Below, piece after piece: positions 947 through 47,582 of a stretch of DNA of 56,662 nt (position 1 is its first letter; every line of letters starts with the position of its first letter). Where the stretch lies: IMG/VR virus record IMGVR_UViG_3300037634_002773, positions 1 through 56,662 of that record; one strand, given 5' to 3'. The notes under the pieces were generated by a model. It was not told the DNA's origin and made no database searches. It worked only from the letters and a program-made list of their open reading frames with translations. Position numbers and translations under genes: made by a program. Source of the DNA: a virus (taxonomy: Duplodnaviria > Caudoviricetes).

Positions 947-1424
947 ACAAGTAAGGATTGGTACATATAATAGTAGATAATAATGGTAAATGATACCGAT
1001 CACCGAGGGGACTAGGATTATATGCAGATCAAAAGATAGCAGTATAGCGACGAGGATCGCCTCAAATCATGGTGGATCTCGCCTCAATCAATTCTTATAT
1101 ACTATATACAGTGATACACTAGATGGTAATGGTATCCGATACCTGTATAGACTAACCGAGGACTGCACCAAATGGTATCTAATAATGATAGTAGTAACAA
1201 GTAGCGACGAGAAACTAGGTTGATATCTTACAGGTTGGTGACCATCGTCCCCTTCTCTACGTGTACAGGCTACCGACGGACACCGATGGGAGCAAATGGT
1301 CACCGAGGAGGATAACGTGCAGAAAAAAAACAAAGATAACGGAATCGCAAAACCGAAAAACCCTCGACGCCCCGCCCCCTTTAGGTTATTGGACGCGTAT
1401 TGTTTTGTACCATTTTTTTTAGGT

Positions 1425-1456
1425 TTTGTACTTTTGTAAACAATCCTTAACTTACC
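1425..1456 (+). promoter_or_regulatory. Candidate late promoter TTTGTA-N17-TAACTT(ACC)
   Basis: Lies just before the first plus-strand SD and ATG; TAACTTACC recurs before the scaffold/capsid genes. Confidence 0.45.
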
Positions 1457-1481: not shown

Positions 1482-1631
1482 ATGCCAGCAAACAAGCCGT
1501 ATCCAGGCGAGAATCCAGTAACTGCACAAAAGAGAATAGCCAAGAATAAGGTTAAGAAGGTTGATTCTAAGACTAAGTCCGACATGATGGCCGCAAATAT
1601 ATCCAGTACAATCAAGAACATGGGATACTAG
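1482..1631 (+). CDS. Small basic protein, 49 aa
   Basis: AAGGAG SD; MPANKPYPGENPVTAQKRIAKNKVKK...NMGY*. Confidence 0.7.
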   Translation: MPANKPYPGENPVTAQKRIAKNKVKKVDSKTKSDMMAANISSTIKNMGY

Positions 1632-1727
1632 GGGGATACAAGGGGGATCTATCCCCCATGCAAGGGGCTTAGTAAGGGGCTTATAGAGCCCCATAAGTAT
1701 AAGTATAGGTATAAGTAATAAGGTATA
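1630..1727. repeat. Iteron-like array, inverted near-copy of 49147-49240
   Basis: AGGGGGATACAAGGGGGAT (1630-1648) is the reverse complement of 49221-49239; TAAGTATAAGTA and GGTATAAGTAATA are also shared. Confidence 0.85.
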
Positions 1728-1769
1728 CGGGTATACCGCGAAGTTTAAAATAAAAAAGGGGGTATCACA

Positions 1770-1910
1770 TTGATTGAAGCAATTGTACTATCAACCCTAC
1801 TAAGTGTAGAGCCAGCGTTTCAAGACTACGAGCCAGAAGTTAAGCTTGAGAGGAAGCGCTCGCATAAACGTAGGCGGAAAATAAGAAAACCAGTTAAAGG
1901 GCTCAGATGA
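1770..1910 (+). CDS. Small protein, 46 aa, hydrophobic N-terminus and Arg/Lys-rich C-terminus
   Basis: AAGGGGG SD, TTG start, ATGA overlap with the next gene; MIEAIVLSTLLSVEP...RKRSHKRRRKIRKPVKGLR*. Confidence 0.55.
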   Translation: MIEAIVLSTLLSVEPAFQDYEPEVKLERKRSHKRRRKIRKPVKGLR

Positions 1911-2632
1911 GAACCTATAAAGTTAAAGGAGAGGATCATCACATATATGATCTAGAGTCTGAGCTCCCAGACGACATACACCCTATAGAAAATTGGCGCG
2001 ACGGTTACCCAGGGGATTGGGTTCGTGCTGATGATAATGCTTATGTGCAGATCTTAGAAAGAAAGAAGATTGGCAAGGGGGAGAGTGTGCGCACATGTGT
2101 CGGAACCTACATGGTGGCGCAAACCATGGATACCGCTGAAAGAGATAGTCGCTACACAATAAACGGAAAGCTTGACTCAAATACCGTTAAAGAGCGCAAA
2201 AAGCCCACAGATAAGGAGGTAATCTTCGCCAGTAAGGTAGTTAGAGGGGCAGACGCAGTTAAGGCCTACATGGAGGTATATAATGCAAACAGTAAAGATT
2301 ATGCTAAAAGGCGCTCTGCGCTACTTTTAAAAACAGAAAGGATAAATACACTAATGAATCCAACCAAAGAAGAATTAACTGAGGTCTTTGCAAGCCTAGA
2401 CGTAGATCTGAAGTTCTTAATACGAGAAGCAAAAGACCAGGTCGTAGATGGAAAGAACGGTAGCGATAAGATGAACGCACTTAAGATGTTATGGGAAGCC
2501 TTTGGGGTTGTTACTCAGAAGAAAGTTACTGAAGTAGCGGGCATATTCCAAGGATTTGAACCAGCCCAATTAAAAGAAGTAAAAAGACCGTCATTGCCAG
2601 AGCATCAAACAACTGGCGATGAGCCTATTTAA
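1907..2632 (+). CDS. Probable terminase small subunit with an N-terminal extra domain
   Basis: Directly upstream of and coupled to TerL; TerS-like helical segment (FASKVVRGADAVKAYMEVY...ALLLKTERI). Confidence 0.65.
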   Translation: MRTYKVKGEDHHIYDLESELPDDIHPIENWRDGYPGDWVRADDNAYVQILERKKIGKGESVRTCVGTYMVAQTMDTAERDSRYTINGKLDSNTVKERKKPTDKEVIFASKVVRGADAVKAYMEVYNANSKDYAKRRSALLLKTERINTLMNPTKEELTEVFASLDVDLKFLIREAKDQVVDGKNGSDKMNALKMLWEAFGVVTQKKVTEVAGIFQGFEPAQLKEVKRPSLPEHQTTGDEPI

Positions 2633-4197
2633 TGGCCAATATAAACACCAAAAACGTCTCAGAAGCAGAAGAACTACTACTGGCAGCCAAGAATGATATA
2701 ATTGCGTTTGGTAAGCTGTTTTTAGCAGATGATTTCTCAAGATCTGAGACCCCATGGTTTCACTATGAGATAGTAGACGCGGTAGATGAGATGGATGGAG
2801 AATTACATAAATATCGCAATCTTGCAATTATTATGCCAAGGGGCCACGGTAAGACCGTTATAACCAAGGCTGACATTATGAGATCCTTTTGCTTTGCAGA
2901 GGAGCCGCTATTTTATGGATGGGTATCAGCAACCCAGAAGTTGGCTGTTGGCAACATGGACTATATTAAAACTCATTTAGAGTTCAATGAAAAAATTAAG
3001 TACTACTTCGGGGACATGAAAGGAAGAAAATGGACAGAGCAAGATATAGAGCTTAAAAATGGATGCAAACTTATTTCAAAATCCAATATTTCTGGTATTC
3101 GTGGTGGTGCTAAGCTCCATAAGCGGTATGATCTTGTTGTATTGGACGACTTTGAAGACGAAAACAATACACTTACTTCAGAGTCTAGGTCTAAAAATGC
3201 AAATATGGTCACAGCTGTTGTTGCTCCTGCTTTGGAGCCTCACGACGGTAGGTTGCGCATTAATGGTACGCCTGTTCATTACGATTCATTCATCAATAAC
3301 CTCATTACTAACTATCAAAAATCTCAAAGCGAAAATAAAGACTTTTCTTGGAAAGTGATGCTCTATAAGGCAATACAAGAAGATCAAGCGCTTTGGCACA
3401 GTTGGTTTCCACTTACAAAGCTGACTGAGAAAAAGAAGTTCTACGTAGACTCTGGAAAACCTCATAAGTTCTACCAAGAGTATATGATGGAGGTTCAATC
3501 TGCTGAAGACTCTATCTTTAATATGAGACATGTTAAATACTGGGATGGGTTTTATAAGTTTGATGAGAATGAGATGATGCCATACTTGTACTGTGAGGGA
3601 GAAAAAATACCAGTTAATATCTTTGCTGGCGTAGATCCAGCCACAGACTCAGAGAGAAGAGATAGTGATTATAGTGTTATTATGATAGTTGCATGCGATA
3701 TTAATGCTAATATATACGTGCTGGATTATGTAAGAAAGAGATCTTTACCAGTACTTGGGATACCAGGTGAAAACAAAAAGGGGATAGTTGACCATATGTT
3801 TGATCTTAACGCCAAGTATAATCCAACTCTGTTTACAGTTGAAGATACTTCAATGTCAAAGCCAATATTTCAAGCACTCAGGAGCGAGATGAGAAGAAAG
3901 AATGATTTTAGCTTACGTTTCAAAGAAGAACTACCTGGAACTAAGCAGAGCAAGCTTGATAGAATACAGGGAGTATTAGCTCAAAGAATGTCAATTGGTG
4001 CGGTGAGGATACGAGACTCCCACTATGACCTTCAACATGAGATACTTACTTTCGGCAAAAGAATGGCTCACGATGACACTATAGATGCTCTCGCTTATGC
4101 GGTTAAGTATGCCCATCCACCAAATGGTTCTGAAAATCAGTCTGGAGACTGGATAAGAAGACAAATTGATAGACCAAAAAGCTGGGTATTAGCCTGA
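2632..4197 (+). CDS. terL: Terminase large subunit
   Basis: Walker A PRGHGKT, Walker B LVVLDD, RNase H-like nuclease motifs GVDPA and HDDTIDALAYA. Confidence 0.95.
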   Translation: MANINTKNVSEAEELLLAAKNDIIAFGKLFLADDFSRSETPWFHYEIVDAVDEMDGELHKYRNLAIIMPRGHGKTVITKADIMRSFCFAEEPLFYGWVSATQKLAVGNMDYIKTHLEFNEKIKYYFGDMKGRKWTEQDIELKNGCKLISKSNISGIRGGAKLHKRYDLVVLDDFEDENNTLTSESRSKNANMVTAVVAPALEPHDGRLRINGTPVHYDSFINNLITNYQKSQSENKDFSWKVMLYKAIQEDQALWHSWFPLTKLTEKKKFYVDSGKPHKFYQEYMMEVQSAEDSIFNMRHVKYWDGFYKFDENEMMPYLYCEGEKIPVNIFAGVDPATDSERRDSDYSVIMIVACDINANIYVLDYVRKRSLPVLGIPGENKKGIVDHMFDLNAKYNPTLFTVEDTSMSKPIFQALRSEMRRKNDFSLRFKEELPGTKQSKLDRIQGVLAQRMSIGAVRIRDSHYDLQHEILTFGKRMAHDDTIDALAYAVKYAHPPNGSENQSGDWIRRQIDRPKSWVLA

Positions 4198-4517: not shown

Positions 4518-6796
4518 TGGCAAAGCAGACAGCAAAAACAAAGGCTGATAGGGTAAGAGATCTCTATATTAATCTAAATGGTGCAAGCCGCCAGCGATGG
4601 GAAAAGGTCAATCAACAAGGGCACGATTTTTACTTAGACAATCAGCTTACTCAAGAGGAAAACGAAACTCTTGAAAGGCAGGGAATGCCAACATTTACTA
4701 TTAATCGTATTATTCCTATTGTAGAAATGTTAAACTTTTATGTTACTGCAAATCAGCCAAGATGGCAGGCGATTGGAGCAGAGGGTTCTGATATAGATGT
4801 TGCCAATGTTCACGCTGATGTTGCTGACTATATTTGGTATGAGAGTGATGGTCAGAGTAAGTTCAGCCAGGTTATTAATGACGCGGCAACAAAGAGTGTT
4901 GGGTATTTTAAGGTGTCGGTTGATGCCCACTCTGATAGGGGCCTCGGAGAAGTAAGGGTAGATACGGTTGAGCCGTTTGATATCTTTATTGATCCAAAGA
5001 GTAGGGATATATTCTATCGTGATGCTGCCTATATAATGGTTCATAAGGTTATTCCCCAGTCACACCTTCAAAAAATATTCCCAGAGTATGCAACTAAAAT
5101 TAAGAATGCTGGTGCGGCAGAGAGTGATAATTATAGCTATAGTCAAAAGGCTGAGGGCGGTGATTTCCAGTATAAGGATGTGATTGATGAGACATTTGAT
5201 TATTTTGGAGAAGAAGACCGCAGGCTTGACTATTTTGAGATGTATGAAAAGATTAAAATTGCGTATATGAACGTATTCTATCGCATAGAGCCAACCCCTG
5301 AAGAAATTAGCAAAATACGTGCTCAGGTCGATGTGGAAATGGAGGCCATTGAAAAAGAAATGCAAGTAAAGGTGCAGGAGACCATATTGCAGCTCAACCA
5401 GCAGTTAGAGTCTGGCAATATAATAGAAGAAAGATTTACTCTTGAAATAGAAAAGCTAGAGAAACAATCAGAGCAGCAAATTACTCAGACCAGAGAGCAG
5501 AAGATCTCTCAAGCTATGGAGGCGGTTAGTCGTGTAGAAAACAATGTAGTCTCTGAAAAAGAATTTAAAGTATTAATGAAGGGAGAGCTTAAAAACAGTC
5601 TTATAGATGCTATTAAGTTCTATGAAGCCAGAATTAAGTTGAGTTGTGTGATCGGTGACACTTTCATGTATGAAGCGGTGCTGCCAGGACTAGAATACCC
5701 AATAGTACCTATACACTATAAATGGACAGGGACTCCGTATCCTATGTCTGCAGTATCTCCACTGGTAGGGAAGCAGCAAGAGTTAAATAAAGCTCACCAG
5801 CTGATGATACACAATGCCTCATTAGGCTCCTCCCTAAGGTATATCTATCAGGAGGGAAGTATAGATGAAGACTACTGGGAACGTTATGCATCTGCTCCTG
5901 GCGCACTCTTACCAATAAGGCAGGGCTTTGAGGCTCCAAGTATTGTTCAACCAGCTCCAATCTCTACTGCATTTGCTAATATTGTAGAGCTTGGCAAGAC
6001 TGATATGGAGTACTTGGCTGGCATTTATTCTTCAATGCAGGGAGATATGAAGGCTCAGCATGATACATTTAAGGGCCTTATGGCAAACGATGAGTACGGA
6101 ACTCGTAGGGTTAAGACTTGGATGAAGAACTCAGTAGAGCCGTCATTACAACATTTAGGTGAGGTAGTCAGGGACTATGCGCAAGCTACCTATAAGTCAA
6201 ATAAAGTATTTAGAATAGTAGAGCCTAATAATCAGAAGGTTAAGGATGTTGAGGTTAACATTATTCAATATAACAAGTACGGTGATGCAATCGGGAAGTT
6301 TTTTGATTATGAAACAGCCAAGTTTGATGTTAGACTTATTGCTGGCTCAACAATGCCAGTCAATCGCTGGGCATACTTAAAAGAGTTAATGGAAATGTTA
6401 AAGCTTGGCATAGTAGATGATATAGCGGTACTTGCAGAGGCGGACATTAAAGACAAAGAACAGATTGCGCAAAGAAAAAGTAATCTTGCACAGATGCGTT
6501 CTGCTCTTGAAAGTGCTGAACAAGAGATTAAAGAGGGCAAGGGCACTATTGAAACCTTATCTAGACAGCTTGTTCAGGCAGGCATTAAAGATAAGACCAG
6601 AATGGCTGAGCATGATATGCGCAAACAGATACTTGATACAAGTGCGAAACTAAAGGGAGACACTGCTGCCGCAAGGGCAAACCAGGATCTCCAAAATGAA
6701 AGATCGAAGGACATGCAAAGAAACCAAGAGAAAGAGTTTAAACAACTCGTTCAAAATGGTTTGGCAGAAAAAAAAGAAGGTAATAACTTACCATAA
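4517..6796 (+). CDS. Portal protein, P22-like (start probably 4517)
   Basis: Position after TerL; P22-type motifs (PTFTINRIIP, EPFDIFIDP, YPIVP, QQELNK); C-terminal coiled coil; TAATG coupling. Confidence 0.9.
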   Translation: MAKQTAKTKADRVRDLYINLNGASRQRWEKVNQQGHDFYLDNQLTQEENETLERQGMPTFTINRIIPIVEMLNFYVTANQPRWQAIGAEGSDIDVANVHADVADYIWYESDGQSKFSQVINDAATKSVGYFKVSVDAHSDRGLGEVRVDTVEPFDIFIDPKSRDIFYRDAAYIMVHKVIPQSHLQKIFPEYATKIKNAGAAESDNYSYSQKAEGGDFQYKDVIDETFDYFGEEDRRLDYFEMYEKIKIAYMNVFYRIEPTPEEISKIRAQVDVEMEAIEKEMQVKVQETILQLNQQLESGNIIEERFTLEIEKLEKQSEQQITQTREQKISQAMEAVSRVENNVVSEKEFKVLMKGELKNSLIDAIKFYEARIKLSCVIGDTFMYEAVLPGLEYPIVPIHYKWTGTPYPMSAVSPLVGKQQELNKAHQLMIHNASLGSSLRYIYQEGSIDEDYWERYASAPGALLPIRQGFEAPSIVQPAPISTAFANIVELGKTDMEYLAGIYSSMQGDMKAQHDTFKGLMANDEYGTRRVKTWMKNSVEPSLQHLGEVVRDYAQATYKSNKVFRIVEPNNQKVKDVEVNIIQYNKYGDAIGKFFDYETAKFDVRLIAGSTMPVNRWAYLKELMEMLKLGIVDDIAVLAEADIKDKEQIAQRKSNLAQMRSALESAEQEIKEGKGTIETLSRQLVQAGIKDKTRMAEHDMRKQILDTSAKLKGDTAAARANQDLQNERSKDMQRNQEKEFKQLVQNGLAEKKEGNNLP
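6761..6792 (+). promoter_or_regulatory. Candidate late promoter TTGGCA-N17-TAACTT(ACC) for scaffold/capsid
   Basis: Same TAACTTACC as at 1448; lies 30 nt before the scaffold start. Confidence 0.45.
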
Positions 6797-6822: not shown

Positions 6823-7722
6823 ATGACAAAAGAGAACGAAGGTAACTCCGAACAAGTTGTAGAAGAAGTAATGGATACAATGGTTGAGGACTCCAATGCA
6901 GACTTTTTTGACGCATTAGAAACGAAGGTTAATGGTGCAATACAGGATACCCCAGCGGAACAGGCTGTACAAGAGCCAGTTTCAGATCAGGTAACTCCAC
7001 AAGTGGACTCCAGTTCTAGGGAAGTGCCTCAAAATTCCAATTGGGAAGATGAGAGCAATCCGTACAAAGTACGGTACAGCGATTCATCACGCGAAAATAC
7101 AAAGAACAAGGCTGTGCTAGATAAGCTCAAACCCTATGAGTCTTTGATAGGCGTGTTGGAACAAGATGCTGAATTAGTAGATATAGTACGTGGTTATTTA
7201 GATAAAGGGACGAAGCCTGACATGAAACAATCGCTAGACCTTGGAGACGACTTTGTGTTTGATATGGATGAAGCTATATCAGATCCAGACTCAAAATCTG
7301 CTCAAGTATTTAATACTATAGTGGATAAGAGGGCCGATAGAAAAGTTGGCGATAGAATTGCAGCTGAAAGGCAAAATGCTAAACAGGCAGCACAGAAACG
7401 AAATATGCAGAGCCAAACTAAACAGTTTGTAGATGCAAATGGAATGAACAAAGACGAGTTCTCAGAACTTAGCAAATGGGCGCAGACTCATCAACTTTCT
7501 TGGGATGATATAAATTATCTTAAGAATCGCGATAAGGCAAACGCTAAGATTGCTAATAATTCTAAGCAACAAGTCTTAGATCAAATGAAAAATGTGCAGT
7601 CTATGCCAGCAACAGCCAGCGCAGCTGGAGGTGAAAATCCTGGAGATCGTGACCATAATGACTCTATATTCGACCTAATTCAGAAAGCAGATAATAATCT
7701 AGATAATGTATTTGGTGAGTAG
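6823..7722 (+). CDS. Capsid scaffolding protein
   Basis: Acidic helical protein between portal and capsid; RYSDSSRE motif. Confidence 0.75.
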   Translation: MTKENEGNSEQVVEEVMDTMVEDSNADFFDALETKVNGAIQDTPAEQAVQEPVSDQVTPQVDSSSREVPQNSNWEDESNPYKVRYSDSSRENTKNKAVLDKLKPYESLIGVLEQDAELVDIVRGYLDKGTKPDMKQSLDLGDDFVFDMDEAISDPDSKSAQVFNTIVDKRADRKVGDRIAAERQNAKQAAQKRNMQSQTKQFVDANGMNKDEFSELSKWAQTHQLSWDDINYLKNRDKANAKIANNSKQQVLDQMKNVQSMPATASAAGGENPGDRDHNDSIFDLIQKADNNLDNVFGE

Positions 7723-7765
7723 ATAGGTTTCTACTTACTAGGTCTAATATAAGGAGATCAGTAAA

Positions 7766-9277
7766 ATGGCTGATTTATTTTATACGGGTGGGACAACATC
7801 TAGTCTGAATCTTGACACTGGTGCGACTTATGGCACTATTGATACTGGCGATTTAAGGCGTAAGTATAATTTTGGTGATAGAGTTTCAGAGCTAGCAATT
7901 GCTCAAGACCCGTTCTTTCGGTTTGTATCTAAACTGAATAAAAAACCAACAGATGATCCTCATTTTCAGTTTACTGAAAAGAGAGGTTCATACCATAAGC
8001 GCTATGCTTATGTAACAGACCATGGAGCAACTTCCGCTCTCGGTAACTCTGGGGATTCCACATGGGATTCTGGAGAAAGCGATCAAGGTGATACCTACTA
8101 CTTTAAAATGGGTACTGACTATTTATCAGCTGGCAATCGTCAGAATGTATATGGTCAAGTTACCAATGATATATCAGTAGGTGATTCTGGAACAGCTCCA
8201 GAGTTCTTCATGGAAGGCCAATTAGTTAAAATCAATACACATACAGCAGGCGAATCGCCTGGTTCTGGTGGTGGCGAGGTTGATAACTATGCAGTAGTTA
8301 AAGTTGAAAGCGTCACCACAAGTGGTGAATTTAAAGTACTTAAAACTACTGTCATTAAAGAGCCTTTTGCTTCAGCAGCTGCAGTAGAAATTGCATCATT
8401 TGATACTAATACTCCAAAGGGTACTGGTGTTACTATGTATGGCAGTTCAATTGCTAGTGCTTTGGAACAACAAAGATGTTATGTGGTTGGTAACGCAAAT
8501 AAAGAGGGATCTGGATTCCCAGAAACCTGGAAAGATCAACCCTACTTACTAAAAACTGGCGCAACTCAGATTTGGAAAACCACAATGGCAATGTCCAACA
8601 CTGCACGCGCAACAGTTCTTAGATATGAAGGTAATGAGTGGGCACGTATCTGGAAAGAAAAACTAATCGAACATAAGTGGGACATTGAGGCTGACTTATT
8701 GTTTGGTACTCAGTATATTGATACTACTAATGGTATCCAGTATACACAGGGTGCTGTAGACTATGTGTTGACTAATGGCAATATCTTTACATTATCAACA
8801 ACTACAAAAACAGCTGACGACTTTCTTGATGACATGTCTAACTATCTTGATCCTCGTTATAATGGCAGCTCAGCTAATGTATTTTTCTGTGATACAGAGA
8901 CTTACAATTGGTTGCATAAATTAGGTGGATACTTCAAAAACAATATGGAAGTTTCCTCTAACTTTAGTGCTGACCTTGCTGTAACAGGTCGTAAAAAAGT
9001 GCTCGGTCTGGACACAACAACAATCTCAACAGTTTATGGTGATATGAATGTTGTACGTAATGTACATCTGGATGGAAGTCCTGTAAAAATTCTTGCTATG
9101 AACATGAAGAACTGTTTTTATCGTCCACTGGTTGGCAATGGTATAAACCGCGATACTGGTATTTATGTGGGTGTGCAAACACTTGAAAATAGTGGTATTG
9201 ATCGTAGAGTTGATCAAATCTTAACTGAAGCTGGTATGGAGTTCGGAATGGCCGAATCTCATGCTGTCTGGAAATAG
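7766..9277 (+). CDS. Major capsid protein (SU10/DUF5309-like)
   Basis: Follows scaffold; strong SD; motifs QIWKT, EHKWDIEADLLFG and DQILTEAGMEF. Confidence 0.9.
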   Translation: MADLFYTGGTTSSLNLDTGATYGTIDTGDLRRKYNFGDRVSELAIAQDPFFRFVSKLNKKPTDDPHFQFTEKRGSYHKRYAYVTDHGATSALGNSGDSTWDSGESDQGDTYYFKMGTDYLSAGNRQNVYGQVTNDISVGDSGTAPEFFMEGQLVKINTHTAGESPGSGGGEVDNYAVVKVESVTTSGEFKVLKTTVIKEPFASAAAVEIASFDTNTPKGTGVTMYGSSIASALEQQRCYVVGNANKEGSGFPETWKDQPYLLKTGATQIWKTTMAMSNTARATVLRYEGNEWARIWKEKLIEHKWDIEADLLFGTQYIDTTNGIQYTQGAVDYVLTNGNIFTLSTTTKTADDFLDDMSNYLDPRYNGSSANVFFCDTETYNWLHKLGGYFKNNMEVSSNFSADLAVTGRKKVLGLDTTTISTVYGDMNVVRNVHLDGSPVKILAMNMKNCFYRPLVGNGINRDTGIYVGVQTLENSGIDRRVDQILTEAGMEFGMAESHAVWK

Positions 9278-9804: not shown

Positions 9805-10212
9805 ATGGCTAGAGCAAAAATGGGCGCATCTTATGGATGGGAAGGTAATTACGTTGAGTCAGCAACGGCTAGTTTTAGTTTAGAAGTTGGCGATTCAGGT
9901 AAAACCTTTATATTAAAAGATGCAGCTGTAACAGTTACTCTCCCTACATTGAGTGATATAGAAGCTGGGTATTCAGTTAGATTAATATCTGGTGACGATA
10001 GCGAACATATATTAACTGGCGGTGCTAGTAAAATATATGGGCATGCTATAGATGGTAGTGGTACGGCTGCTGAAACAGTCTTGCCTCTAACAGGCCATTC
10101 AACTATTACTCCAGGTGCTGGTATGATTATAGGTGACAAATATGATATAGTTAGTGATGGCACTAACTGGTATGTATATGTCATTGCTGGTGCTGAAGTA
10201 GCAGGTAGCTAA
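9805..10212 (+). CDS. Probable capsid decoration protein, paralog of 9290
   Basis: DSGKTFIL...TLPTL...AGYSVRLI pattern. Confidence 0.6.
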   Translation: MARAKMGASYGWEGNYVESATASFSLEVGDSGKTFILKDAAVTVTLPTLSDIEAGYSVRLISGDDSEHILTGGASKIYGHAIDGSGTAAETVLPLTGHSTITPGAGMIIGDKYDIVSDGTNWYVYVIAGAEVAGS

Positions 10213-10316: not shown

Positions 10317-13300
10317 TTGGCAACATTTGAAGCACAAGTAGAAGCACTAACAGGAATCTCAATCAGCGGTTCCTCTAGCCCAACTCAAACAGAGTTGTCA
10401 TCATTTTTAGTAGATGGCGTTATAGATGTCGTCAATAGAGTGATTATGACTCGGCCTGCAGAACTTTCCAAATTTACCAAAACAACAAACGCAACTGATT
10501 CAGTAGCTAAAACAGGAAAAATATTATCTGTTGTTAGAGAGCATGATAGTACGACTATTTTAAGAAAGTGTGCAGAAATAGATCCAGGCGATAGATACGA
10601 TGCAACAGATACGGATAGCTTAAATTATCGCTCAAAGACAAATCCTGGCTATTATGAGTTAAGCGGGCTTATACTCTGTGTGCCTGAGGCATCTTCTGGA
10701 AACAATGATATTATTGTAACCCAGGTGCACTACGATACAGGCCTGATAAATACAGATAATTATCAAGCAGGCGCGATAGAAAATTTTCCAAAAGATTATG
10801 AATACTTAGTGGCAATATATGCCGCCATTCAATCATTAAGGGCTACCATGGGGAATAATGTGATATTACTTACTTCTGTTCCACCAGATGTACCTAGTTT
10901 GGCTACAGTTAGCTTTAGTGAGTCAAATTCTCTAAGTATTTCGGCAACTGCCCCAACTGCCATTTCACTTGCAACAGTTTCATATACTGATGCAGTAAAT
11001 GCAGATGCTAGTGCAACTGCTGTTGGAGCTATAACCGTAGCAACAGTAGCAAAGGCCGATATTAGTGGGGACGTTCCAGCATATACAAAGCCAGGACATC
11101 CAGCGCAGGTAGCATTTGCAGACTATTGGACAGTTGGAGATTTTGGAGATAGCGATCCAGGCGAACTTACTGTAACAGCAGTTCTTCCTAGTACTCCAAC
11201 TATCACAGCGGCAAGTGTCACAATAACAGGTACTGCTCCTACATATACAAAACCTTCATTAGCATTAAAGGTAGCTCCAACAATCTCAGACTTATCAATT
11301 ACAGCAGTTCCACCAGATACTCCGTCAGCTCCTAGCGTTGCAGGAGTTGCTATAGCATCTGTCGCCAAGGGATCATTAGCAACGTCAGCTCCAGCATATA
11401 CAAAGCCTGGGCATCCAACGCAGGTTGCATTTACCGATTATACAAGTGGATTATCTGAGACTGATCCTGGAGTATTAACAGTTACCTCTGTGACACCAGT
11501 TCCACCAACCGCACCAAGTTTCTCAACTCCAACAATAGGGGCTGTGACAGTTGGGTCTACAACACTTACTAATTTAGGCGTTGCTCCGTCATATACTTCA
11601 CCGACAGCAACAATTAGCGGGACTGCATGGGCAACCGCATATCCAGATGAATATACTGCTCTCAATATAGCTCTTGCTGCTATAACTACTGAAGTAGGAT
11701 TAGCAAAGGCAGAAGCTGCGGAAATTGTAACACAAACAGATAACAGTAGCGATTTTGCAACAGCACTTACTGCTATGAATGGAGAGCTTGATAAGGTTGA
11801 TGATATTATAGTTGAAGCAAGTGCAGAATTTGATAAATCTTCTGCACTTCTTCTTAAAGGAGAAGTTGATAGCGAAAGTGCTGTTAATGACGCAGCAGCT
11901 AAAATAGTAATAGAATTAGATGATACAAGGGCTATATGCGATAAGGTTGGGACATCAGCAGATAGTGCGATAACAGCTCTTGGTAATATGGCTACAGAAA
12001 TAGCACTTGCAAATGCAGAAGTGGATGGCGTGACAACAACATTAGCACAGGCTCTAGCGTTAACTGACTCTGGTAGCACTGACATTAAAACAGCTTTAAC
12101 TGGTATGCAAACAGCAGTTGCTAAATTTAGAGCTGATGGAAGTGACCCTGCCCTCTTTGGAGATGAGTCTACATATACTACTGGAAGTTCAGCCATGACA
12201 AATGTAAAAACGCATTTAGATAGAGCCATTAGTTATGTGAATGGTGATTTTCCTGAAGCTGATTCTGACTTAGTTCAATATCTTAAAGATATTAATGATC
12301 AGGTTACAGATGAAGATACAGAGCTTGCAGCTTCATTTATGCAAGCAGCGCAAACAACGATGAATGCAATGCAGGCTGATCTTCAAATAGCTCAAACATA
12401 TATAACAGAATGGAATGCAATGGTTCAAACTCTTGTTTCCGAGATTAATGCATTTTCATCTGAGGCTAGTTCTAGGTTTGGATGGATTAATGCTAAGGCT
12501 GTTGCATGGCAAGGAAAATTATCAGCAGCTCAAGGATATATGGGTACGGCAGGAGATTATGCAAATCAAGCAAGTGGATTTAATTCAACTGCACAAACTT
12601 ATGCTTCAGAGGTTCAAGCTAGGATTGGCTTGGCAAATGGATATGTAGCAGAGATTAATGTAAGGCTAGCACAGGCAGGTGTAAAAAGACAAGAATCTCA
12701 GTCGAGATTAACAGCTGGTAACGCTTATATTCAGGAAGCTCAGGCATATATCGCCCAAGCTAATGGATATGCTCAGGAAGTTTCTGCTCGTGGTGGTTTT
12801 ACAGCTGCTAAATCGCAGGCAGTGCAGGGATTTATACAGACCGCACAGGGTTATGCTAATGAGGTTCAAGCACTATTATCACAAACGCCATCAAAAGTAT
12901 CTGAATATCAAGCTAAGGTGCAGGATGCTTTAAATGAGTATAATAAAGAAAACGCATCATATCAAGCTAAATTACAGGAATCTATTCAGCAGGCACAAAT
13001 AAATGCTCAAAAAGCACAACAACAGGCTCAATTAGATGCAACAGATTCACAACAAGAAGCAAGTTTAAAGCTTCAAAAAGAGAACCAAGAGTATGCATCT
13101 AAACTTCAAAAGTATCAAGCTGAAGTCTCAAAATATCAAGCAGAAGTTAATACTCAGATACAAGAGTATGGACAAAAATTATCACAATACCAATTAGAAT
13201 TAAATACTGCTTATACCGCTTGGGCTAAAACAGAATCTGACAATATTCAAGTATTCCAATCCGACATACAGAATGAACTAAATGAGTTTAATAAAGAGAG

Positions 13301-15841: not shown

Positions 15842-18253
15842 ATGGCAGAAACATTAACAGGAAAAACAATAGCAGCTACTTATAAGACTTTGCTTAAAGC
15901 TGGATCAAATAATCCAGTAGCATTAGCAAGTGGCAGTGGATCATCTGAAAGGCTTGTATTTGGAGAAGATGATGCAGCAGATGTAAGAACAGCACTATAT
16001 GTAACTCAAGATAGACTCGGCATTGGGAAAGCTGATCCAGATGCCTCGCTTCATATAGGTAGTGGTGATATTTATATAGAAAGAGGTGGTGAATTAAATT
16101 TCTATGCTGATGGTTCTGGTGAGAGGGCAGGAATAGCAGCAACCAATTCTAGTCCATATAATGAATTGCAATTTTTTATTGGAAGCCATTCAGAAGCAAT
16201 GCGTATTGACGATAGTGGTAATGTCGGCATTGGGACTGATGCACCAGCCACTATCTTTGAAATTGAAAGCTCTGCCTCTGAGACAGCTTTAGGTATTGAT
16301 AATCATGGGACTGATAGTGACCCTGTTATTAGATTTAAACTAAGTGGTACTACAAATTATATGATGGGAGTAGATGATAGTGATTCTGATAAATTTAAAA
16401 TAGCAACAAATTCAATGGCTAATGCTAAAATAACTTTACAATCTGATGGCAATGTCGGTATTGGGACTACTTCACCAGAATGCGATTTGCATATTCAAGA
16501 TGCTACAATTCCCAGAGTTTTAATAGATTCATCAGCAACATCAGGTTCAGATATGAGGGGTATTCTTGATATGAAGGATGGCAACAATGATGGCTGGAGA
16601 ATGGTTTATATTGCAGATGATGCCCAGCAATATTTAGCTTTTGAGGCTATTGAAAATGACTCTCATACTACAGCTATGGTTATAGAGGATACTGGCAATG
16701 TCGGTATTGGGACTACTTCACCAAGTGCAGTATTGCATGTTGCTTCAGGAGCTGCAAATCCAGCAAAAATTATTACAAGTTCTAGTACTAATTCATCATT
16801 GCTAATAGGTAATACATCTTCAGGTACAGCTGCATTAGTTTTAGATGCTTCTAATGGCGATGGTGAAGGTAGTGATTATATGCACCTATGGCAGGCAAAT
16901 GACTTAGATGGTCATATTGATATGAAAGCTTCTGGTTATGATTTAATACTACAGGAATCAGGTGGCAAAGTCGGCATTGGGACTACTACGCCAGCAACAC
17001 CATTACATATATATAGTAGCGATGAAAGTCTAGCAAAGTTTCAATCTACAGATGCTAGTGCATATATACACATAAGAGATAATAATGATAATTGCTATGT
17101 TGGAGTACATGATGGGTCAGGCGATAATATTTCATATATTGGAGGAACAGCTGGAGCAAGTGCACTTAATCTGAATGTAACATCAGCTGGCAATGTCGGT
17201 ATTGGGACTACTTCACCTGATTATCAATTAGAGTTGTCAAAAGATGGGGCAGCTCACCTGGTTCTTTCTTCTTATTCTGATACAGAATCCCATGCACCTA
17301 CTGTAATTTTGCGTCACGCTGAAGGTAGTGAAGCAAGCCATGCTAGTGCTGTTGATAACGCTTGCATATTAGGTCAGATTGTCTTTCAGGGATATGATGG
17401 TGATAGTTTTGAAAGTGGAGCAGCAATAAAAGTTCTTACCAATACTGATTCTGCCAATGGCGATATGAGGTCTGATATGTCATTTTGGACAACTCCAGAT
17501 GCTTCTGCGACTGCTGTTCAAAATATGACAATAAGATATGATGGCAATGTCGGTATTGGGAGCACCACCCCAGGTGCAAAATTTATGGTTGCAGATTCAA
17601 CAACAACAACAACATCAGTAGCTTATTTTTATAGTAATTCAAGCAGTACTTCAAGTAGAAATATAGTATCTATAATCAATGACCACGTTGATGCAGATGA
17701 TGCTGTATGTCTCAGAATTGACCAAGATGGTGGTGATTATATGATTAACGCTGTTGGGTCAGGTACTTTTCGTGTTCAAGCCGATGGAGATTGTGAAAAT
17801 ACTGACAATGATTATGGTGCAATATCTGATATTAGGATGAAGGAAAATATTACAGATTGTACTCCTAAGCTTGATGATATAAACAAACTTCGTATTGTGA
17901 ATTTTAACTTTAAAGATATAGGCGATGGACATAAGCAAATTGGTGTAATAGCTGACGAAGCAAAGGAAGTATTTCCCGCTCTTGTTAAGGTTTCTGATGG
18001 AAGGGAATATAAGGAAGAGAAGGTTCAAGTAACTCCAGCAGTAGAAGCTAAAGATGCAGTATTGGATGGAGATGGGAATATTCAAGAAGAAGCAGTTGAA
18101 GCTGTGGAAGCAGAATATGAAGATGTTCTTACTAGTGAAGTCATAAATGGTTATGAAGACCAACAATCTTTTTCATATTCAATACTAGTACCAATGTTAG
18201 TAAAAGCAATACAAGAATTATCAGCTAAGGTAACAGCCTTAGAAAACGCATAA
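15842..18253 (+). CDS. Tail fibre with GNVGIGT repeats and a C-terminal S74 intramolecular chaperone
   Basis: Six G(N/K)VGIG repeats; SDIRMKENI...IGVIADE...LVPMLVKAIQELS. Confidence 0.9.
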   Translation: MAETLTGKTIAATYKTLLKAGSNNPVALASGSGSSERLVFGEDDAADVRTALYVTQDRLGIGKADPDASLHIGSGDIYIERGGELNFYADGSGERAGIAATNSSPYNELQFFIGSHSEAMRIDDSGNVGIGTDAPATIFEIESSASETALGIDNHGTDSDPVIRFKLSGTTNYMMGVDDSDSDKFKIATNSMANAKITLQSDGNVGIGTTSPECDLHIQDATIPRVLIDSSATSGSDMRGILDMKDGNNDGWRMVYIADDAQQYLAFEAIENDSHTTAMVIEDTGNVGIGTTSPSAVLHVASGAANPAKIITSSSTNSSLLIGNTSSGTAALVLDASNGDGEGSDYMHLWQANDLDGHIDMKASGYDLILQESGGKVGIGTTTPATPLHIYSSDESLAKFQSTDASAYIHIRDNNDNCYVGVHDGSGDNISYIGGTAGASALNLNVTSAGNVGIGTTSPDYQLELSKDGAAHLVLSSYSDTESHAPTVILRHAEGSEASHASAVDNACILGQIVFQGYDGDSFESGAAIKVLTNTDSANGDMRSDMSFWTTPDASATAVQNMTIRYDGNVGIGSTTPGAKFMVADSTTTTTSVAYFYSNSSSTSSRNIVSIINDHVDADDAVCLRIDQDGGDYMINAVGSGTFRVQADGDCENTDNDYGAISDIRMKENITDCTPKLDDINKLRIVNFNFKDIGDGHKQIGVIADEAKEVFPALVKVSDGREYKEEKVQVTPAVEAKDAVLDGDGNIQEEAVEAVEAEYEDVLTSEVINGYEDQQSFSYSILVPMLVKAIQELSAKVTALENA
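16216..17561 (+). repeat. DNA-level repeats inside the fibre gene
   Basis: TGGCAATGTCGGTATTGGGACTACTTCACC is exact at 16447, 16693 and 17188; variants at 16216, 16963 and 17542. Confidence 0.9.
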
Positions 18254-18271: not shown

Positions 18272-18514
18272 ATGGCGAAAGCAAAAGAAGTAGAAACACA
18301 AGGCAAGTCAGTAGAGGAGCTGAAAGAAATAGCTCAGACCTTACAGACTCAACTTAATGAACATCAGAGGCAAGCTAATCATCATCAGACGATGGCAACT
18401 AAGGCTCAAGGAGCTCTAGAAGTACTACTACAACTGATTCCAAAAGAGGAAATTGAAGAGATGGTAGAAAAGGAGAAGGATAATAGCAGTAATGGAGAAG
18501 TAGTTGAAGGTTAA
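18272..18514 (+). CDS. Small coiled-coil protein
   Basis: AGGAG SD; helical sequence; follows the fibre gene. Confidence 0.75.
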   Translation: MAKAKEVETQGKSVEELKEIAQTLQTQLNEHQRQANHHQTMATKAQGALEVLLQLIPKEEIEEMVEKEKDNSSNGEVVEG

Positions 18515-24517: not shown

Positions 24518-24684
24518 TGGATACGTTAAGAACTGTGTTAAAATCTCCGATAGGGGCAGCTTTAGAGGGTACGCTGGGAATACTAATTACACTTTGGGAT
24601 AGGCTCCCAGAGATAATTAGGGTACTGATTGGGATGGCAACATTTATCCATATTCTAGTTAGAATAAAGAAGGATATAAAATGA
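24517..24684 (+). CDS. Holin-like membrane protein, 55 aa
   Basis: TAATG and ATGA coupling; two hydrophobic segments and a basic C-terminus. Confidence 0.6.
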   Translation: MDTLRTVLKSPIGAALEGTLGILITLWDRLPEIIRVLIGMATFIHILVRIKKDIK

Positions 24685-25553
24685 TATGCCCTTATTGCAT
24701 AAGTGGTATAACCGAGCTGGCAAAAAACAGCACGACTAATGACAAGTATAAATGCAAGTCATGCGGAAAGATATTTTATGCTCCTAATGAGAGCTTAGTT
24801 ACTAATGAGCCATGTATGGATATCGAACCAGGCAAGGTTCTCAAGGTGTCGTATGATAAGGCTATTAAGATCCATTGTGCTACGGACGTTCATCATGGCG
24901 CAAAAGAGCATCATTATACTAAATTTAATGAGCTTATAGAGGAGGTAGACTCTGATCCAGATGCAAGATGGTTCTTAAATGGCGACAATATAGAGTTTAT
25001 ACCTCCTAATTATAAGATATCCCAGAGAGGTCAAGTGATGGAGCCAGATGAGCAGCACCTCACATTTATAAAAAGAATTGAAAAGATTGCAGATAAGTTA
25101 TTATTTATTAGGGGTGGTAATCACGATATGACTAGAAGTGTCAATCTTTTAGGTGTTGATGTGTGCAAGCTCTTGGCGGATAGACTGATGGTTCCATACT
25201 TTAGGATGCCTGGCTATAGCGAAATACAGATAAAAGACAGGAAATGGTACATGGTATCAGGTCATGGGAAAAGTGGCGGAAAAAATGGAGATTTGGAACT
25301 AGATAAGATGGCGGCAGTCTATAGTGATGGAGATGTTTTTATACTTGGACATAACCACCAGCTGTATGCAAAGCCACTTGACAGTGTTATGGTTGATGGA
25401 GACGAAGAAAGGTTACACAGAAGATGGTATTGTCGGGGTGGAAGTTTTTTGAAGTACGCTGACTATGCGCGGTATAGTTTTTACCCAATTGTACGCGCAG
25501 GTTGGGTTACGATAGAATTTGGAGAAAATGAGATCAAAACGTGGACAAACTAA
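24681..25553 (+). CDS. Calcineurin-like metallophosphoesterase with an N-terminal Zn ribbon
   Basis: CPYC...CKSC; DVH, GDNIE, GNHD, HG and GHNH motifs. Confidence 0.9.
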   Translation: MICPYCISGITELAKNSTTNDKYKCKSCGKIFYAPNESLVTNEPCMDIEPGKVLKVSYDKAIKIHCATDVHHGAKEHHYTKFNELIEEVDSDPDARWFLNGDNIEFIPPNYKISQRGQVMEPDEQHLTFIKRIEKIADKLLFIRGGNHDMTRSVNLLGVDVCKLLADRLMVPYFRMPGYSEIQIKDRKWYMVSGHGKSGGKNGDLELDKMAAVYSDGDVFILGHNHQLYAKPLDSVMVDGDEERLHRRWYCRGGSFLKYADYARYSFYPIVRAGWVTIEFGENEIKTWTN

Positions 25554-32517: not shown

Positions 32518-33855
32518 ATGGCAGGAAGATATCCAGATTATGATTGGCGAGGAATAGCAATGTTAACCCAACAGCTCGGACAACTGTTTGAGCCGAGTAA
32601 GGCCAAGATGATGTCTCAACAACAAGACCATGAAATGAACATGTTAATGGCTAAGCAGTCCTGGAAAATGCAGTCAGATGACTTGGACGCATTAAAGTTA
32701 AAGCGTAAAGGGCTATTAGTCCAATTAGACGCTCAGACTACGGCCGTTAATGAGCTCGGACTTAGAGATCTAGTTAACGCTGGCAAAAGCGACGGTGCTA
32801 ATGTGGGAGAGGCTGCAGAAATGTTTGAAAAGAATGATATTAGAAAACTAAGCGATATACAAGATGCGGATAGTATGCATCGTGATGCGATAAGGGAACT
32901 GGAAAATAATCTTTCTTACATGAAGACGCTGAACGAGGAAGCTAAGATAGGTCAAGCATGGCGTAAAGGCTCTATGACTAAAAAGGATCAAAAGGGTGCT
33001 ATGATAGACTATTACGAAGCCGCTAATCAGGATAAGATAGCGGGACTCTCCTACGAAGAGGGTCAGAACGCAATCAAGAAATATATAACTGACAACTATT
33101 CAGTTGCTGAAGGCGAACAAGGAATGGAAATGGATTTCGGCACAGGAGGCAAGCCAGATATTATAATGGTCAGACCAGAGGCTATCGCATTTAAATCAGG
33201 ATGGGACTCTGGAACTGGTACTGGTACTGGCAGGGGTAAGGCTGAAAAAGGAGAAATATCAGATAGGCAATCAATTAAAGATGCTCAAAATAATTTATTA
33301 GGCGGCAAGACTCACTTGAAAATGACAAATGAAGAGTTAATCAAATCTGTCGTGTATAATAAGGATCTATACGAAGGCATAGACAATAGAATGAAGGGTT
33401 CAGAGTACCCATTAGGATTATCTATGGAGCTGGCAGGAACGGGAGATTTTCTCGCAACAGAAGTTGCCTATCAGCAGGGGACGGAATATGGTATAGATAG
33501 ATCTACTATACATCAATATTCAGCCGCTTATACTAACTATAATCAGGGCATGAAAGAAATGCTAAAAAGGCAAATATCGCTACCAGGAAAAGTAACTCAG
33601 ACAAGTGGAATATTAACTCAAATGCAGGTTCCTAATGATCAGGCAATACAGATAATGCAAGACTTTAATACTTATAATTCAAACCCAGATACTTTGTTAA
33701 CGCAGATTAATACTTATGAGCCGTCAGACGCAACAGGTGCGCCTAAAGAGCAGCTCCATCAAGCCTATATTGACTTTTTAAAGCAATTGCCAACTATGGA
33801 TCCGCAGAAGAGGCGGGAAGGTATACAGCAATTTACTAATATACTGAGCAGATAA
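32518..33855 (+). CDS. Probable ejection protein
   Basis: SD; helical; coupled to the giant protein. Confidence 0.6.
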   Translation: MAGRYPDYDWRGIAMLTQQLGQLFEPSKAKMMSQQQDHEMNMLMAKQSWKMQSDDLDALKLKRKGLLVQLDAQTTAVNELGLRDLVNAGKSDGANVGEAAEMFEKNDIRKLSDIQDADSMHRDAIRELENNLSYMKTLNEEAKIGQAWRKGSMTKKDQKGAMIDYYEAANQDKIAGLSYEEGQNAIKKYITDNYSVAEGEQGMEMDFGTGGKPDIIMVRPEAIAFKSGWDSGTGTGTGRGKAEKGEISDRQSIKDAQNNLLGGKTHLKMTNEELIKSVVYNKDLYEGIDNRMKGSEYPLGLSMELAGTGDFLATEVAYQQGTEYGIDRSTIHQYSAAYTNYNQGMKEMLKRQISLPGKVTQTSGILTQMQVPNDQAIQIMQDFNTYNSNPDTLLTQINTYEPSDATGAPKEQLHQAYIDFLKQLPTMDPQKRREGIQQFTNILSR

Positions 33856-36800
33856 TGTCGTACGAAGATTTTTTAAACCAATATAGCCCACAGACAGAGG
33901 TCGATACTTTAAGCCCTTTTGATCAGTTTTTAATTGATCAACAATTAAGGGAGCAGAAAGAAAAAGAAGAACGTCTACGCCTGGAAGAAGAAAATAGAAT
34001 TAAAGAGGCTGAGCGTAAAGCTGCGGAAGTAGAGGCTGCTCGTGTTCCTGAAAACCCTACATTTGACGAAGTCGAAAAATATATGATATTTGCCGAGTCA
34101 AGCGGGAATAAAGATTCTGTCAAAGTTAATGATGATGAGACTATGGATGTGTCACTTCATGGAATAAATGAGCGTTGGATCAATCAATTCCCAACATCAG
34201 GGAAAAAAGACCCTAAAAACAATGGAATAAAGCCATGGAATGAGCAAAAAGATGGCACATTAGACCCTGTCTACGCAATGGTACATAATTATATGCGAGA
34301 GCAAATTCCAACCTGGGATAGTGTAAGCGACTCAAGCAGGCTTGAGATAGTTAAAGATGAAGTATATTCTCGGCCTATAGCAAAATTTATACATGACTAT
34401 AGGGGGCCAAAGCAATGGTCTTCGTATAATAGATTTATGGAGGCCTATCAGACCGATCTTAGAAGCCAATCCGTAGACAGTCTAGCGACAGGGGCATTAC
34501 AGGGGAATAATCCAACCTTAGATGACATAGCTAGTAAAATTAATCTTGATACCACTGCTGTTGCTGAATCCTCTGGAATAGCTCCTATTGATGTTCGTTC
34601 CGAAGATGAAAAGTGGGAGGATAGAATAGCTGAGGCTCAAAGGGAGAAAACATTCTTTGACGCAGTTTCTAAGTATGCAAACGACCCAGTCAGACTGGTT
34701 CCATTCTTAAATACCTCAAGCGATGTAAAAGAAATAATAGATATTACAAGTATAATGGGGCGTGTAGATAAGGCCACAGAGGACGGTATAGAGCCAAGCC
34801 GAGAAGATATGCTAAAGCTGTATGAGTATCAGCAGGCAAATCAGTCTGAAAAAAGCTTTGGATATAAAGTAGGAACTGTGCTTGGTGAGCTTCCAGCGTT
34901 TGCTGGTGAGATTGGACTTACTGGTGGAGTATATAGTGCTGGTAAAAAGGCTACCCTCACGGCAGGTAAGGTAATGATTAAGAAAGCGCTTGGTAAAGAG
35001 GCTAGAGATAAGACCGCTAAATATCTAGCGAAGCATAAAATGTTAGATGGAACATTAAAATTTGGGGCTAAATCAGCTGCTGCCATAGCTGGCGCGACAA
35101 TGCAGACAACTTTTAATGAAGGAATAAAGGAAGTTGGGGCTTGGGCAACAGATGATTTCCTTCCAGGCGGACGTATTCGCCTCGGCATGAAAGAGCATAT
35201 GATGGGTACTTTGCCTATAACTATGGAGGAAAGCGGAGAACTAGAGGCTGCTGTATTTACCGAGGGTGACGACTTTAACGAAGCATTCGCCAAGTCTGCA
35301 ACTGATCTATGGATAGAGATGGTGTCAGAGCGTAGTGGTGGAGCGTTTCCAAAAATAGGCTCAGTGGCTAGAAAGTGGGCAATCAAGCAGGGAATCTTAA
35401 AGAATTTTCTTAAATTAAACCCAACGAAAAAAGCAAAAGATTTTAATAAACTTCTTGATCGTGTTGGTTGGAATGGTATGCTTGGCGAGATGGCTGAAGA
35501 AAGAATTGGCGAAGTAGGCAGGGGCATTGCCTATGAGGTGGGTATTGAGGATGAGGGCTTTAAGTATAAACTGCCAACTATGGAGCAGTTGGCTGTTGAG
35601 GTAGTAGCGTTCTCAATTCCAGGTGTAGGAATAGCTATGACCCAAGGCCTTTTTGGTAAAACTGGGGAAAATAAAGATCCAATTGTAGAGTTTGATTTAA
35701 ACGATCCAGCTGAGGTCAAGAAGGCTATCAAGGCTCAAGGGCTTACAGTTGAGGTGGTAGAGAATGAGGGCGCTTGGGATGTTAATACATATATTGGAGA
35801 GACATTAATAGATCAGTCTACTGGCCATGAAGATAAAAAGAACGCAGATGCGGTAGCTGAAAGCATGGAGAAAGATCTATCTCACTTTGCTAATGCTAAA
35901 GAAGTAGAGTTTGAGGGTGAGCGTCCACCAATAATGGAAGAAGAAGGAACTACTGTTGAGGCAAAGCCATGGTTCCAAGAAAAGGCTGAAGAGGGCAGGG
36001 CAATGGTTAAGGCCGCTGAAGACATGGCTGGAGCCGTTCCAACCTCAGAACAGATAACAGAAAGCCTTGAGCAGGTATACGGTGAAGAAGCGGTTACAGG
36101 AGAGGCTCCCGTTAAGCCAGTTGTTGAGGAGAAACAAGATTACAATAAGATGGTTATTAAGGATCTCAAGTCTGAGCTCAAAACTAGAGATCTATCTCGT
36201 GCAGGCAAGAAAGCTGACTTAGTTGCTAGACTACAAGAGGCAGACAAAGAAGTTGCTCCAGTAGTAGAGCCAGTTGTCGAGGAGGAAGCTCCAAAGATAG
36301 TAAATGATATAAAATATACTACATTATCACTCCCTGAAGGTAAGGTTGTCATTGGTGAATATGCAAAAGATATGGCTGGTAAAAAGAAGGGTGATACATT
36401 TATAGATGAGATAAAAGTAGATAAGGATAAAAGAGAAAGGGGTATAGGAAGTAGACTTCTTCAGTCGGCATTGGAAAAACATCCAAATATAACAGGTCAA
36501 GCATCTAATGATGCTGCTGTTAAGATGAATTATAAGCTCGGAATGAGAGCGTTTGATTCTAAAGGTAATGCATTAACATTAGAGCAAACACTACAGAAAC
36601 GTAAAGAACAGACTTCTGTGGGCATGCGACTTACTGAAGAAACTGCCCCAGTAACAGAAGAAGCTCCAGTAGCTCCAGACATAAAACAACAAGACCTTGA
36701 TACTAGAGTAAATACTGAATTAACTGAAGATGAGAGCACTCAAGTATATCTAGACGATATACGTAATGGTAAGACTGGCAAGCCATTAGCTTGGGTTAAA

Positions 36801-43949: not shown

Positions 43950-44348
43950 TTATTCTGGAAAGTTCCAGTACTCTATTTCAACTAAACCCTCTTCTGCATA
44001 GACCTTCGTAGCCTCCAGAGCGCAGACAATTGAGTCGTCTCTCCAGAAGGCTCCAGTCATAGCATCTAAGTAAAACTTGACGATATTATCTATGTCTGGT
44101 TTAGATGTATGGAGCTTGGGTGCATCGGTTTTTAGTAAGTGAGAGTAGCGTCCCGTTCTATAGTGAGATTTTGGTCTAGGCATGTTGAATATCATCGAAA
44201 CGGATAAAGCTCCTTCTAGGGGGTGTTTTGGCTCAAATTTAGCACATTCCTTTCTAAACTTCTCCTTGTCTTTAGATGATGGGTCATACATGAAGACTCT
44301 ATTGCCAGCCCTTCTTGCTTTGTGGCGTTGTTGTGATAGTGGTCTCAT
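43950..44348 (-). CDS. rusA: RusA Holliday junction resolvase (alternative start 44411)
   Basis: KPDIDNIVKFYLDAM...WRDDSIV; GGAGG SD before ATG 44348. Confidence 0.9.
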   Translation of the reverse strand: MRPLSQQRHKARRAGNRVFMYDPSSKDKEKFRKECAKFEPKHPLEGALSVSMIFNMPRPKSHYRTGRYSHLLKTDAPKLHTSKPDIDNIVKFYLDAMTGAFWRDDSIVCALEATKVYAEEGLVEIEYWNFPE

Positions 44349-44349
44349 C

Positions 44350-47559: not shown

Positions 47560-47582
47560 TCTCTTTCTCCTTTATTAATTGC

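Follow-up and report, generated by a model that had tools for sequence, protein, structure and literature searches.

In lambda O and other lambdoid initiators, the iterons are located midway along the initiator gene, in the part that encodes the linker, and iterons are typically direct repeats at a spacing of 10-12 nt. Lambdoid initiators are mosaic: the N-terminal part is inherited together with the iterons and the C-terminal domain recombines freely. Lambda is not known to have a second copy of ori. Two separated site clusters serve one initiator in P1 (incA and incC) and in phage P4 (ori and crr); P4 requires both sites for replication, P1 incA is an iteron array without origin features, and initiation is limited by P1 incA or by ectopic copies of the lambda ori.

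In Bacillus phage SPP1, one origin (oriL) lies within gene 38 and another (oriR) in the late region (PMC6316719, PMC3485210). G38P binds to oriL as well as oriR (PMC6316719, PMC5737612), each of which has repeats and an AT-rich unwinding element, and the proposed model has G38P at oriR stall the fork and bring about the concatemer switch by way of an annealing protein and a Holliday-junction resolvase (PMC6316719, PMC3485210, PMC3561973, PMC5737612); in these sources, the role of oriR is still a model. In a full-text search of the literature outside subscription journals, SPP1 was the only phage found with two origins bound by one initiator. The first-pass annotation of the genome studied here had suggested an undescribed control circuit linking an initiator gene to the packaging operon. 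SPP1 oriL and oriR are a precedent (PMC6316719, PMC3485210), and hence such a circuit has already been described.

Results

Two inverted copies of one repeat block

The window is the whole stretch of DNA that was analysed, 56,662 nt. Positions 1-127 equal 56536-56662 at 100%, and the genome is a circular unit of 56,535 nt; the source virus record has direct terminal repeats and is rated 100% complete. The features needed below are as follows.

1404-1436, plus strand: match to TTTG-N21-TAnnTTTG (Bacteroidota sigma-A type), candidate late promoter
1482-1631, plus strand: first small late ORF, 49 aa, conserved in relatives
1630-1695, plus strand: late-operon block, G-run iteron part
1696-1722, plus strand: late-operon block, AT-rich repeats with a 6-nt period (AGTATA/GGTATA/AGTAAT)
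1723-1745, plus strand: late-operon block, GGTATAC/GGTATACC pair, nearly invariant in relatives
1770-1910, plus strand: ORF between the late-operon block and the terS-like gene, 46 aa, TTG start, conserved in relatives
1907-2632, plus strand: terS-like gene (weak phrog_51 match, E=0.0016), abutting terL
2632-4197, plus strand: terminase large subunit (phrog_38, E=6.5e-79)
43950-44471, minus strand: RusA-like Holliday-junction resolvase (phrog_140, E=1.4e-31)
48737-49621, minus strand: initiator-like protein, 294 aa, with winged-helix-like N-domain, linker and helical C-domain
49130-49249, minus strand: intragenic block with the same three parts, inside ORF 48737-49621
50060-50773, minus strand: Sak-type single-strand annealing protein
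1620-1667/49202-49249: inverted repeat, 48 nt, 83%
1696-1740/49130-49174: inverted repeat, 45 nt, 78%
1687-1719/49163-49195: inverted repeat, 33 nt, 85%

We found that the three longest of the 427 inverted-repeat pairs in the genome all connect 1620-1740 with 49130-49249. The blocks align over ~110 nt at ~80% identity with one small indel cluster, between unrelated flanks. By BLAST, the block scores 50.7 bits against the rest of the genome, compared with a maximum of 29.5 in 200 mononucleotide shuffles, and an independent BLAST of the block gave E=2e-13 with 74% identity over query positions 31-128. In addition, AGGGGGAT occurs nine times in the genome (1.43 expected), with six of the nine occurrences inside the two blocks. 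The repeat pair is far beyond chance. The first-pass annotation had reported an inverted second copy of the intragenic repeats with shared strings in the same order, 8.9 kb away on the circle. The inverted-repeat scan, the alignment and BLAST all recovered this copy at 1630-1740, the strings agree in sequence and order (for example, a 19-mer at 1630-1648 on the plus strand and 49239-49221 on the minus strand), and the distance is correct. The annotated coordinates are right for the core of the blocks and too narrow at the edges, as the similarity extends to 1740 and 49130.

Reading the late-operon block on the plus strand (1630-1745) and the intragenic block on the coding (minus) strand (49249-49130), we found the same three parts in each: G-run iterons, AT-rich repeats that recur every 6 nt and a GGTAWCC-like pair. 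The iterons in both blocks are direct repeats 10-12 nt apart, accompanied by an inverted copy. The late-operon block starts at the stop codon that ends the 49-aa ORF, and its iteron part (1630-1695) has a direct pair of AGGGGGAT units (11 nt apart) with an inverted ATCCCCC, a direct pair of AAGGGGCTTA units (12 nt apart) with an inverted AGCCCC, and a 16-nt near-palindrome. Its GGTATAC/GGTATACC pair corresponds to the GGTAACC/GGATACC pair of the intragenic block, which spans nt ~373-492 of the 885-nt gene and encodes residues ~125-165. As the two blocks are inverted on the genome, they have the same sense in both local mRNAs. A G-quadruplex was dropped as a reading of the repeats, since four G-runs present at some late-operon alleles are absent from their intragenic partners, and a DNA-inversion switch was dropped since no invertase was found near either block.

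Genes and signals around the blocks

The late-operon block is followed by the 46-aa ORF, the terS-like gene, terL, the portal gene and head genes. The intragenic block is part of a conserved module composed of an HTH regulator, Sak, a 156-aa ORF, the initiator and a 62-aa ORF, with RusA and NinB further down. A late promoter had been placed ahead of the late-operon block; a sigma-70 scan of 1000-2200 did not bear this out, as the plus strand had no promoter-like site and the minus strand had three. The candidate at 1404-1436 is the sole TTTG-N17-23-TAnnTTTG match in the genome, lies 46 nt ahead of the first late ORF and is in a stretch that is invariant in all four aligned relatives. After the late-operon block, a search for an intrinsic terminator or a terminator-like T run found none. 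Cumulative GC skew has its minimum at ~1 kb and its maximum at ~42 kb and tracks gene strand; it was dropped as an origin indicator since, following gene strand, it is uninformative on origin use.

Between the divergent early and late arms lies 1.1 kb (362-1480) without a convincing ORF, with long blocks conserved in relatives L164, L166 and L001. tRNA and Rfam scans of 1-2200 gave no match, and 362-1480 may serve in regulation, encode a structured RNA or be a further origin region. Downstream of the initiator, 46558-48601 holds a ParB-like gene (47846-48601) and a GIY-YIG/HNH homing-endonuclease-like gene. No homolog of the ParB-like gene was found in the 30 close loci, among them the 25-kb contig with both sites, which was searched over its full length, and the endonuclease-like gene has one weak partial match among these 30 loci (L112, 39% over 49 aa); the two genes are probably a recent insertion in this genome. 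Elsewhere in the window, a 54-nt repeat occurs six times at 16195-17574 (spacing 225-354 nt) within a tail-fibre-like ORF (15842-18253), a DNA-repair-exonuclease-like ORF (24681-25553, plus strand; phrog_7339, E=6.5e-21) is found among structural genes, and a single ORF of 2,915 aa (33855-42602), with weak and local family matches only, ends the plus-strand arm.

Comparison with described systems

As a control, the script used here also finds the SPP1 pair (gene 38 nt 383-441 against 4889-4948; 60 nt, 85%, direct). The two phages are alike in having an origin block in the middle of the initiator gene (nt 383-441 of 771 in SPP1, ~373-492 of 885 here), a second block in the late region (~12-13 kb away on the circle in SPP1, 8.9 kb here) and genes for a single-strand annealing protein and a Holliday-junction resolvase nearby. 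They differ in that the SPP1 copies are direct and the copies here are inverted, and in that oriR lies between genes 7 and 8, whereas the copy here follows the first late ORF and precedes terS. The repeat sequences are unrelated, and G38P and the initiator here have no detectable similarity (BLASTP E=7.8). Unlike in SPP1, no G39P- or G40P-like loader or helicase was seen among the 50 ORFs scanned here; a PHROG scan of these 50 ORFs, beside which small ORFs without assigned function remain, returned no helicase, loader, primase or polymerase, which counts against reading the late-operon block as a second origin.

The locus resembles lambda O in the placement of the iterons between a DNA-binding-like N-domain and a C-domain (linker 131-165) and in a mosaic pattern of its initiator family. 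In contrast to lambda, the 294-aa protein has no O-like match in Pfam or PHROG, and no P-like loader was recognised here. It resembles P1 incA/incC and P4 ori/crr in having two separated clusters of putative sites for one initiator, and differs from P1 incA in that the whole origin architecture is copied.

The initiator-like protein

An AlphaFold model (29 homologs) has a confident, winged-helix-like N-domain (8-128), a disordered linker (131-165, pLDDT<50) and a helical C-terminal domain; the linker coincides with the DNA of the intragenic repeat block. The protein itself has no match in Pfam or PHROG, which counts against its being an initiator. A PDB sequence search with the family profile gave nothing below E=0.36, Foldseek gave nothing at E<=0.001 and only weak matches to winged-helix regulators (E at least 0.33), and tblastn against GenBank phages gave no match. 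We found 120 close metagenome homologs, none annotated, and one close relative only in IMG/VR; the genome collection held distant relatives only.

A profile search retrieved 7,930 clusters (50% identity) at E<=0.001, mostly over the N-domain and linker, and N-domain relatives at 30-49% identity are encoded on viral contigs. Among 51 N-domain relatives scanned, 12 match phrog_270 ('replication initiation protein') over residues ~5-100, and others match families named 'DnaD-like helicase loader', 'replication initiation O-like' and 'replisome organizer'. The matches to phrog_270, 16167, 1408 and 1701 fall on the N-domain; the 'O-like' families phrog_345 (4/51) and phrog_678 (3/51) are matched only by distant N-domain relatives. 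Support for 48737-49621 as a putative replication initiator, the identity given to it at first, thus comes entirely through transitive homology: relatives of its N-domain match initiator families and the protein itself does not. Seven of 15 distant relatives in genomes are from Bacteroidota-lineage MAGs, judged by record titles; together with the sigma-A-type match at 1404-1436, this is a weak hint to the host.

An origin-type signature across the initiator family

A strict pattern, in which two or more G4/C4 runs precede three or more hexamers, was found 250-700 nt past the gene start in 70 of the 144 distinct loci of the initiator family; inspection by eye showed looser versions in many of the other 74. 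In its commonest form, two to five direct AAGGGGCTTC units are followed by one inverted AAGCCCC and then by GGTAAW repeats. The AAGGGGCTTC units have 11-nt spacing (five copies in L181), and the signature sits ~330-450 nt after the start of the initiator gene (L001-L160, L175-L189). In 1.89 Mb of loci, the strict pattern has 105 matches, each of which falls within an initiator gene, on the late-operon site or on a single site in L032; this placement was scripted for L001-L080 and checked by eye for the remainder. In L032, the origin-type block (5345-5400) is intergenic, 1.5 kb upstream of an initiator homolog that has no block and that is followed by a DnaB-like helicase ORF (7614-8906). The inverted unit within a coding frame and the non-coding copies show that selection acts on the nucleic acid rather than on the peptide.

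In 79 distant relatives, no second copy was found within ~10 kb on each side, which counts against the second-origin reading. Hence, over that range, the second site appears dispensable for the family. Exact matches of 19-20 nt in L063 and L065 were rejected as second copies since they are unrelated motifs, and a match in L071 was rejected as a tandem repeat at the gene end. L063 also has a palindrome-like motif of 16-17 nt at 10170-10190, 11903-11919 and 18377-18395, with one site inside the initiator gene; this motif is unrelated to the origin block.

The second copy and its alleles in close relatives

Thirteen contigs with a related terS were compared; 11 reach the position and two (L163, L173) end short. 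The second copy, which the annotation had expected in relatives, is present in all 11 of those that reach it, each time immediately behind the first small late ORF. L172 has two additional genes separating the block from terS; hence, the position of the block is tied to the beginning of the late operon and not to terS. The sequence flanking the block is nearly invariant among relatives and all 11 keep its AT-rich hexamers and GGTAWCC pair, and the blocks comprise at least eight distinct alleles (GGGGGAT, GGGGGT, GGGGCT and GGAGGG/CCCTCC types). The terS genes of these relatives are 66-91% identical to that of the window; in the five loci with terS at least 89.6% identical, the allele is GGGGGT (two loci) or GGGGCT (three loci) and never that of the window. 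The late-operon allele is independent of terS.

Both sites lie on one contig in two cases only, the window and L001/L169, and the alleles agree in both. In the window, each site combines GGGGGAT iterons with AGTATA hexamers; in L001/L169, each combines GGGGCT iterons with GGTAAA hexamers, and the two sites have 36 nt at 94% in common. The pre-terS block thus matches the phage's own intragenic iterons in the one relative contig with both sites. The annotation had gone further and held that the initiator and both sites co-vary: the agreement of alleles holds, and the long-range part of the claim has n=2 only, with a chance of class agreement in both contigs of roughly 0.05 (from class frequencies in 102 homologs), which counts against firm co-variation. 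When the window late copy was compared with 17 intragenic blocks, the five of the GGGGGAT class scored 36-47 and the others at most 28; for the L169 late copy, the five of the GGGGCT class scored 36-40 and the others at most 25. The other late alleles also have intragenic class counterparts, which are weak for L167 and L172.

In L001/L169, the motif is arranged as four direct units and one inverted unit at one site and as two palindromic pairs at the other. The motif is thus common to both sites while its copy number and orientation differ, a pattern that suits binding sites more than wholesale gene conversion. Conversion could account for some of the sequence agreement between the sites (36 nt at 94% in L001). 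The phage group was found in runs of 19 studies. Among the matches listed in the metagenome scan, none of the close relatives extends 8.9 kb or further upstream of the gene, and Logan contigs of four runs over L001:800-10500 are pieces of 185-803 nt, none covering both sites.

Iteron class and the initiator N-domain

With 102 full-length homologs, we compared pairwise N-domain and C-domain identity with linker class. In the 566 homolog pairs with N-domain identity of at least 0.85, linker class differs in none. At C-domain identity of at least 0.85, mean N-domain identity is 0.93 for pairs of the same class (n=323) and 0.64 for pairs of different classes (n=338), and the mosaic breakpoint is at about residues 150-160. 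Iteron class is not tracked by Sak, orf156, orf62 or the HTH protein; in L087, for example, identity to the window is 94% for Sak and 93% for orf156 but 62% for the initiator N-domain, and the iterons are GGGGCT. The class-informative residues are at 93-165, adjoining the iterons, and not in the winged helix (20-76), and some proteins of the same class have N-domains only 0.58-0.66 identical. Hence, the association of protein and iterons may reflect physical linkage.

Discussion

We observed a repeat with a three-part anatomy that is conserved in relatives, agrees in allele in the two contigs with both sites and is found family-wide as a block in initiator genes. Our preferred reading, which we hold with somewhat better than even confidence, is that the late-operon block is a second, non-coding copy of an iteron-type origin that is bound by the initiator and acts like SPP1 oriR; we infer initiator binding, firing and fork arrest there from the anatomy and the precedent. 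The first origin copy would be embedded in the linker-coding part of the initiator gene, and the same initiator would bind the G-run iterons at both blocks. The late-operon block would then be either a second (late) origin or the seat of a tight initiator complex. Such a complex may stall forks arriving from the intragenic origin and so help replication change over to concatemer synthesis just where the packaging operon begins, with the Sak annealing protein and the RusA resolvase processing the stalled fork. Parts for a replication switch are present in the genome (Sak, RusA and NinB).

We hold other readings of the late-operon block to be less probable. The initiator might bind there with the block never firing, so that the late copy titrates the initiator or pairs with the intragenic origin (handcuffing). 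The iterons are common to both sites and matched in allele, and lambda growth is reported to be arrested by ectopic origin copies (PMC4488673, PMC3349717). Moreover, the blocks are inverted, 8.9 kb apart and on either side of the early region, and hence looping is possible. We nevertheless judge a sink or handcuffing site unlikely: the hexamers and the GGTAWCC pair kept in 11 of 11 relatives would be superfluous to a pure iteron sink, and hence the P1 incA-type titration raised in the first-pass annotation fits poorly with a late copy in which the whole origin architecture is retained. The element might instead work at the level of transcription, as an initiator-bound roadblock or as an RNA structure in early and late mRNA that ties late expression to replication. 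The position of the block between the first late ORF and the packaging genes would suit this, as would the shared orientation of both copies relative to local transcription, the L032 intergenic block in the same sense as its neighbouring ORFs, and an RNA fold of two hairpins at -38 kcal/mol. However, the z-score of that fold (-2.2) is modest, terminator-like T runs number 0, the direct repeats at 10-12 nt spacing are iteron-like, and the L001/L169 sites differ in motif number and arrangement, as fits protein-binding sites better than one RNA fold. A transcription-level role is thus improbable.

The second copy could also be a functionless relic of a duplication, kept similar to the intragenic copy by gene conversion, as the contiguous and nearly identical best match between the L001 sites (36 nt, 94%) and the absence of a second copy from distant relatives would allow. 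Yet 11 of 11 relatives, with terS identity of 66-91% and at least eight alleles, keep one three-part architecture at the same position, and beyond the common stretch the motif is kept in a different arrangement; hence, we regard a relic as very unlikely. Least probable, to the point of being highly improbable, is a role as the pac site recognised by the small terminase, or as the target of a different DNA-binding protein (the ParB-like one, for instance), even though the block lies ~170 nt ahead of the terS-like gene, has the 16-nt near-palindrome in its iteron part and shares the genome with the ParB-like gene at 47846-48601. A reverse-oriented copy within the initiator gene makes no sense for packaging, and both the pac and the ParB-parS readings were rejected on the independence of the allele from terS, the two genes that separate block and terS in L172 and the lack of the ParB-like gene in relatives.

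Building on the oriR-like reading that we prefer, we offer more tentatively, as a possible but doubtful extension, that the block is a portable, transcription-oriented origin cassette. Its iteron alleles would be specificity types, its late copy would be a late-activated origin or fork trap that times the concatemer switch, and the initiator and the two sites would form a three-way co-evolving set. If so, the late promoter would drive transcription through the late copy, and the early promoter through the intragenic copy, with the same sense in both cases, and an abundant marine phage population, within a family of 7,930 clusters, would hold replication specificity types.

The locus would be an independent natural case of an SPP1-like design in uncultured marine phages, with an initiator that has no detectable similarity to G38P. 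Its many natural iteron alleles open the purpose of the second site and the co-evolution of initiator and iterons to comparison and to binding assays, and the iteron-plus-hexamer signature could predict origins in thousands of uncultured phage genomes. Hence, we see the main value of the finding in this natural allele series and in the family-wide origin signature.
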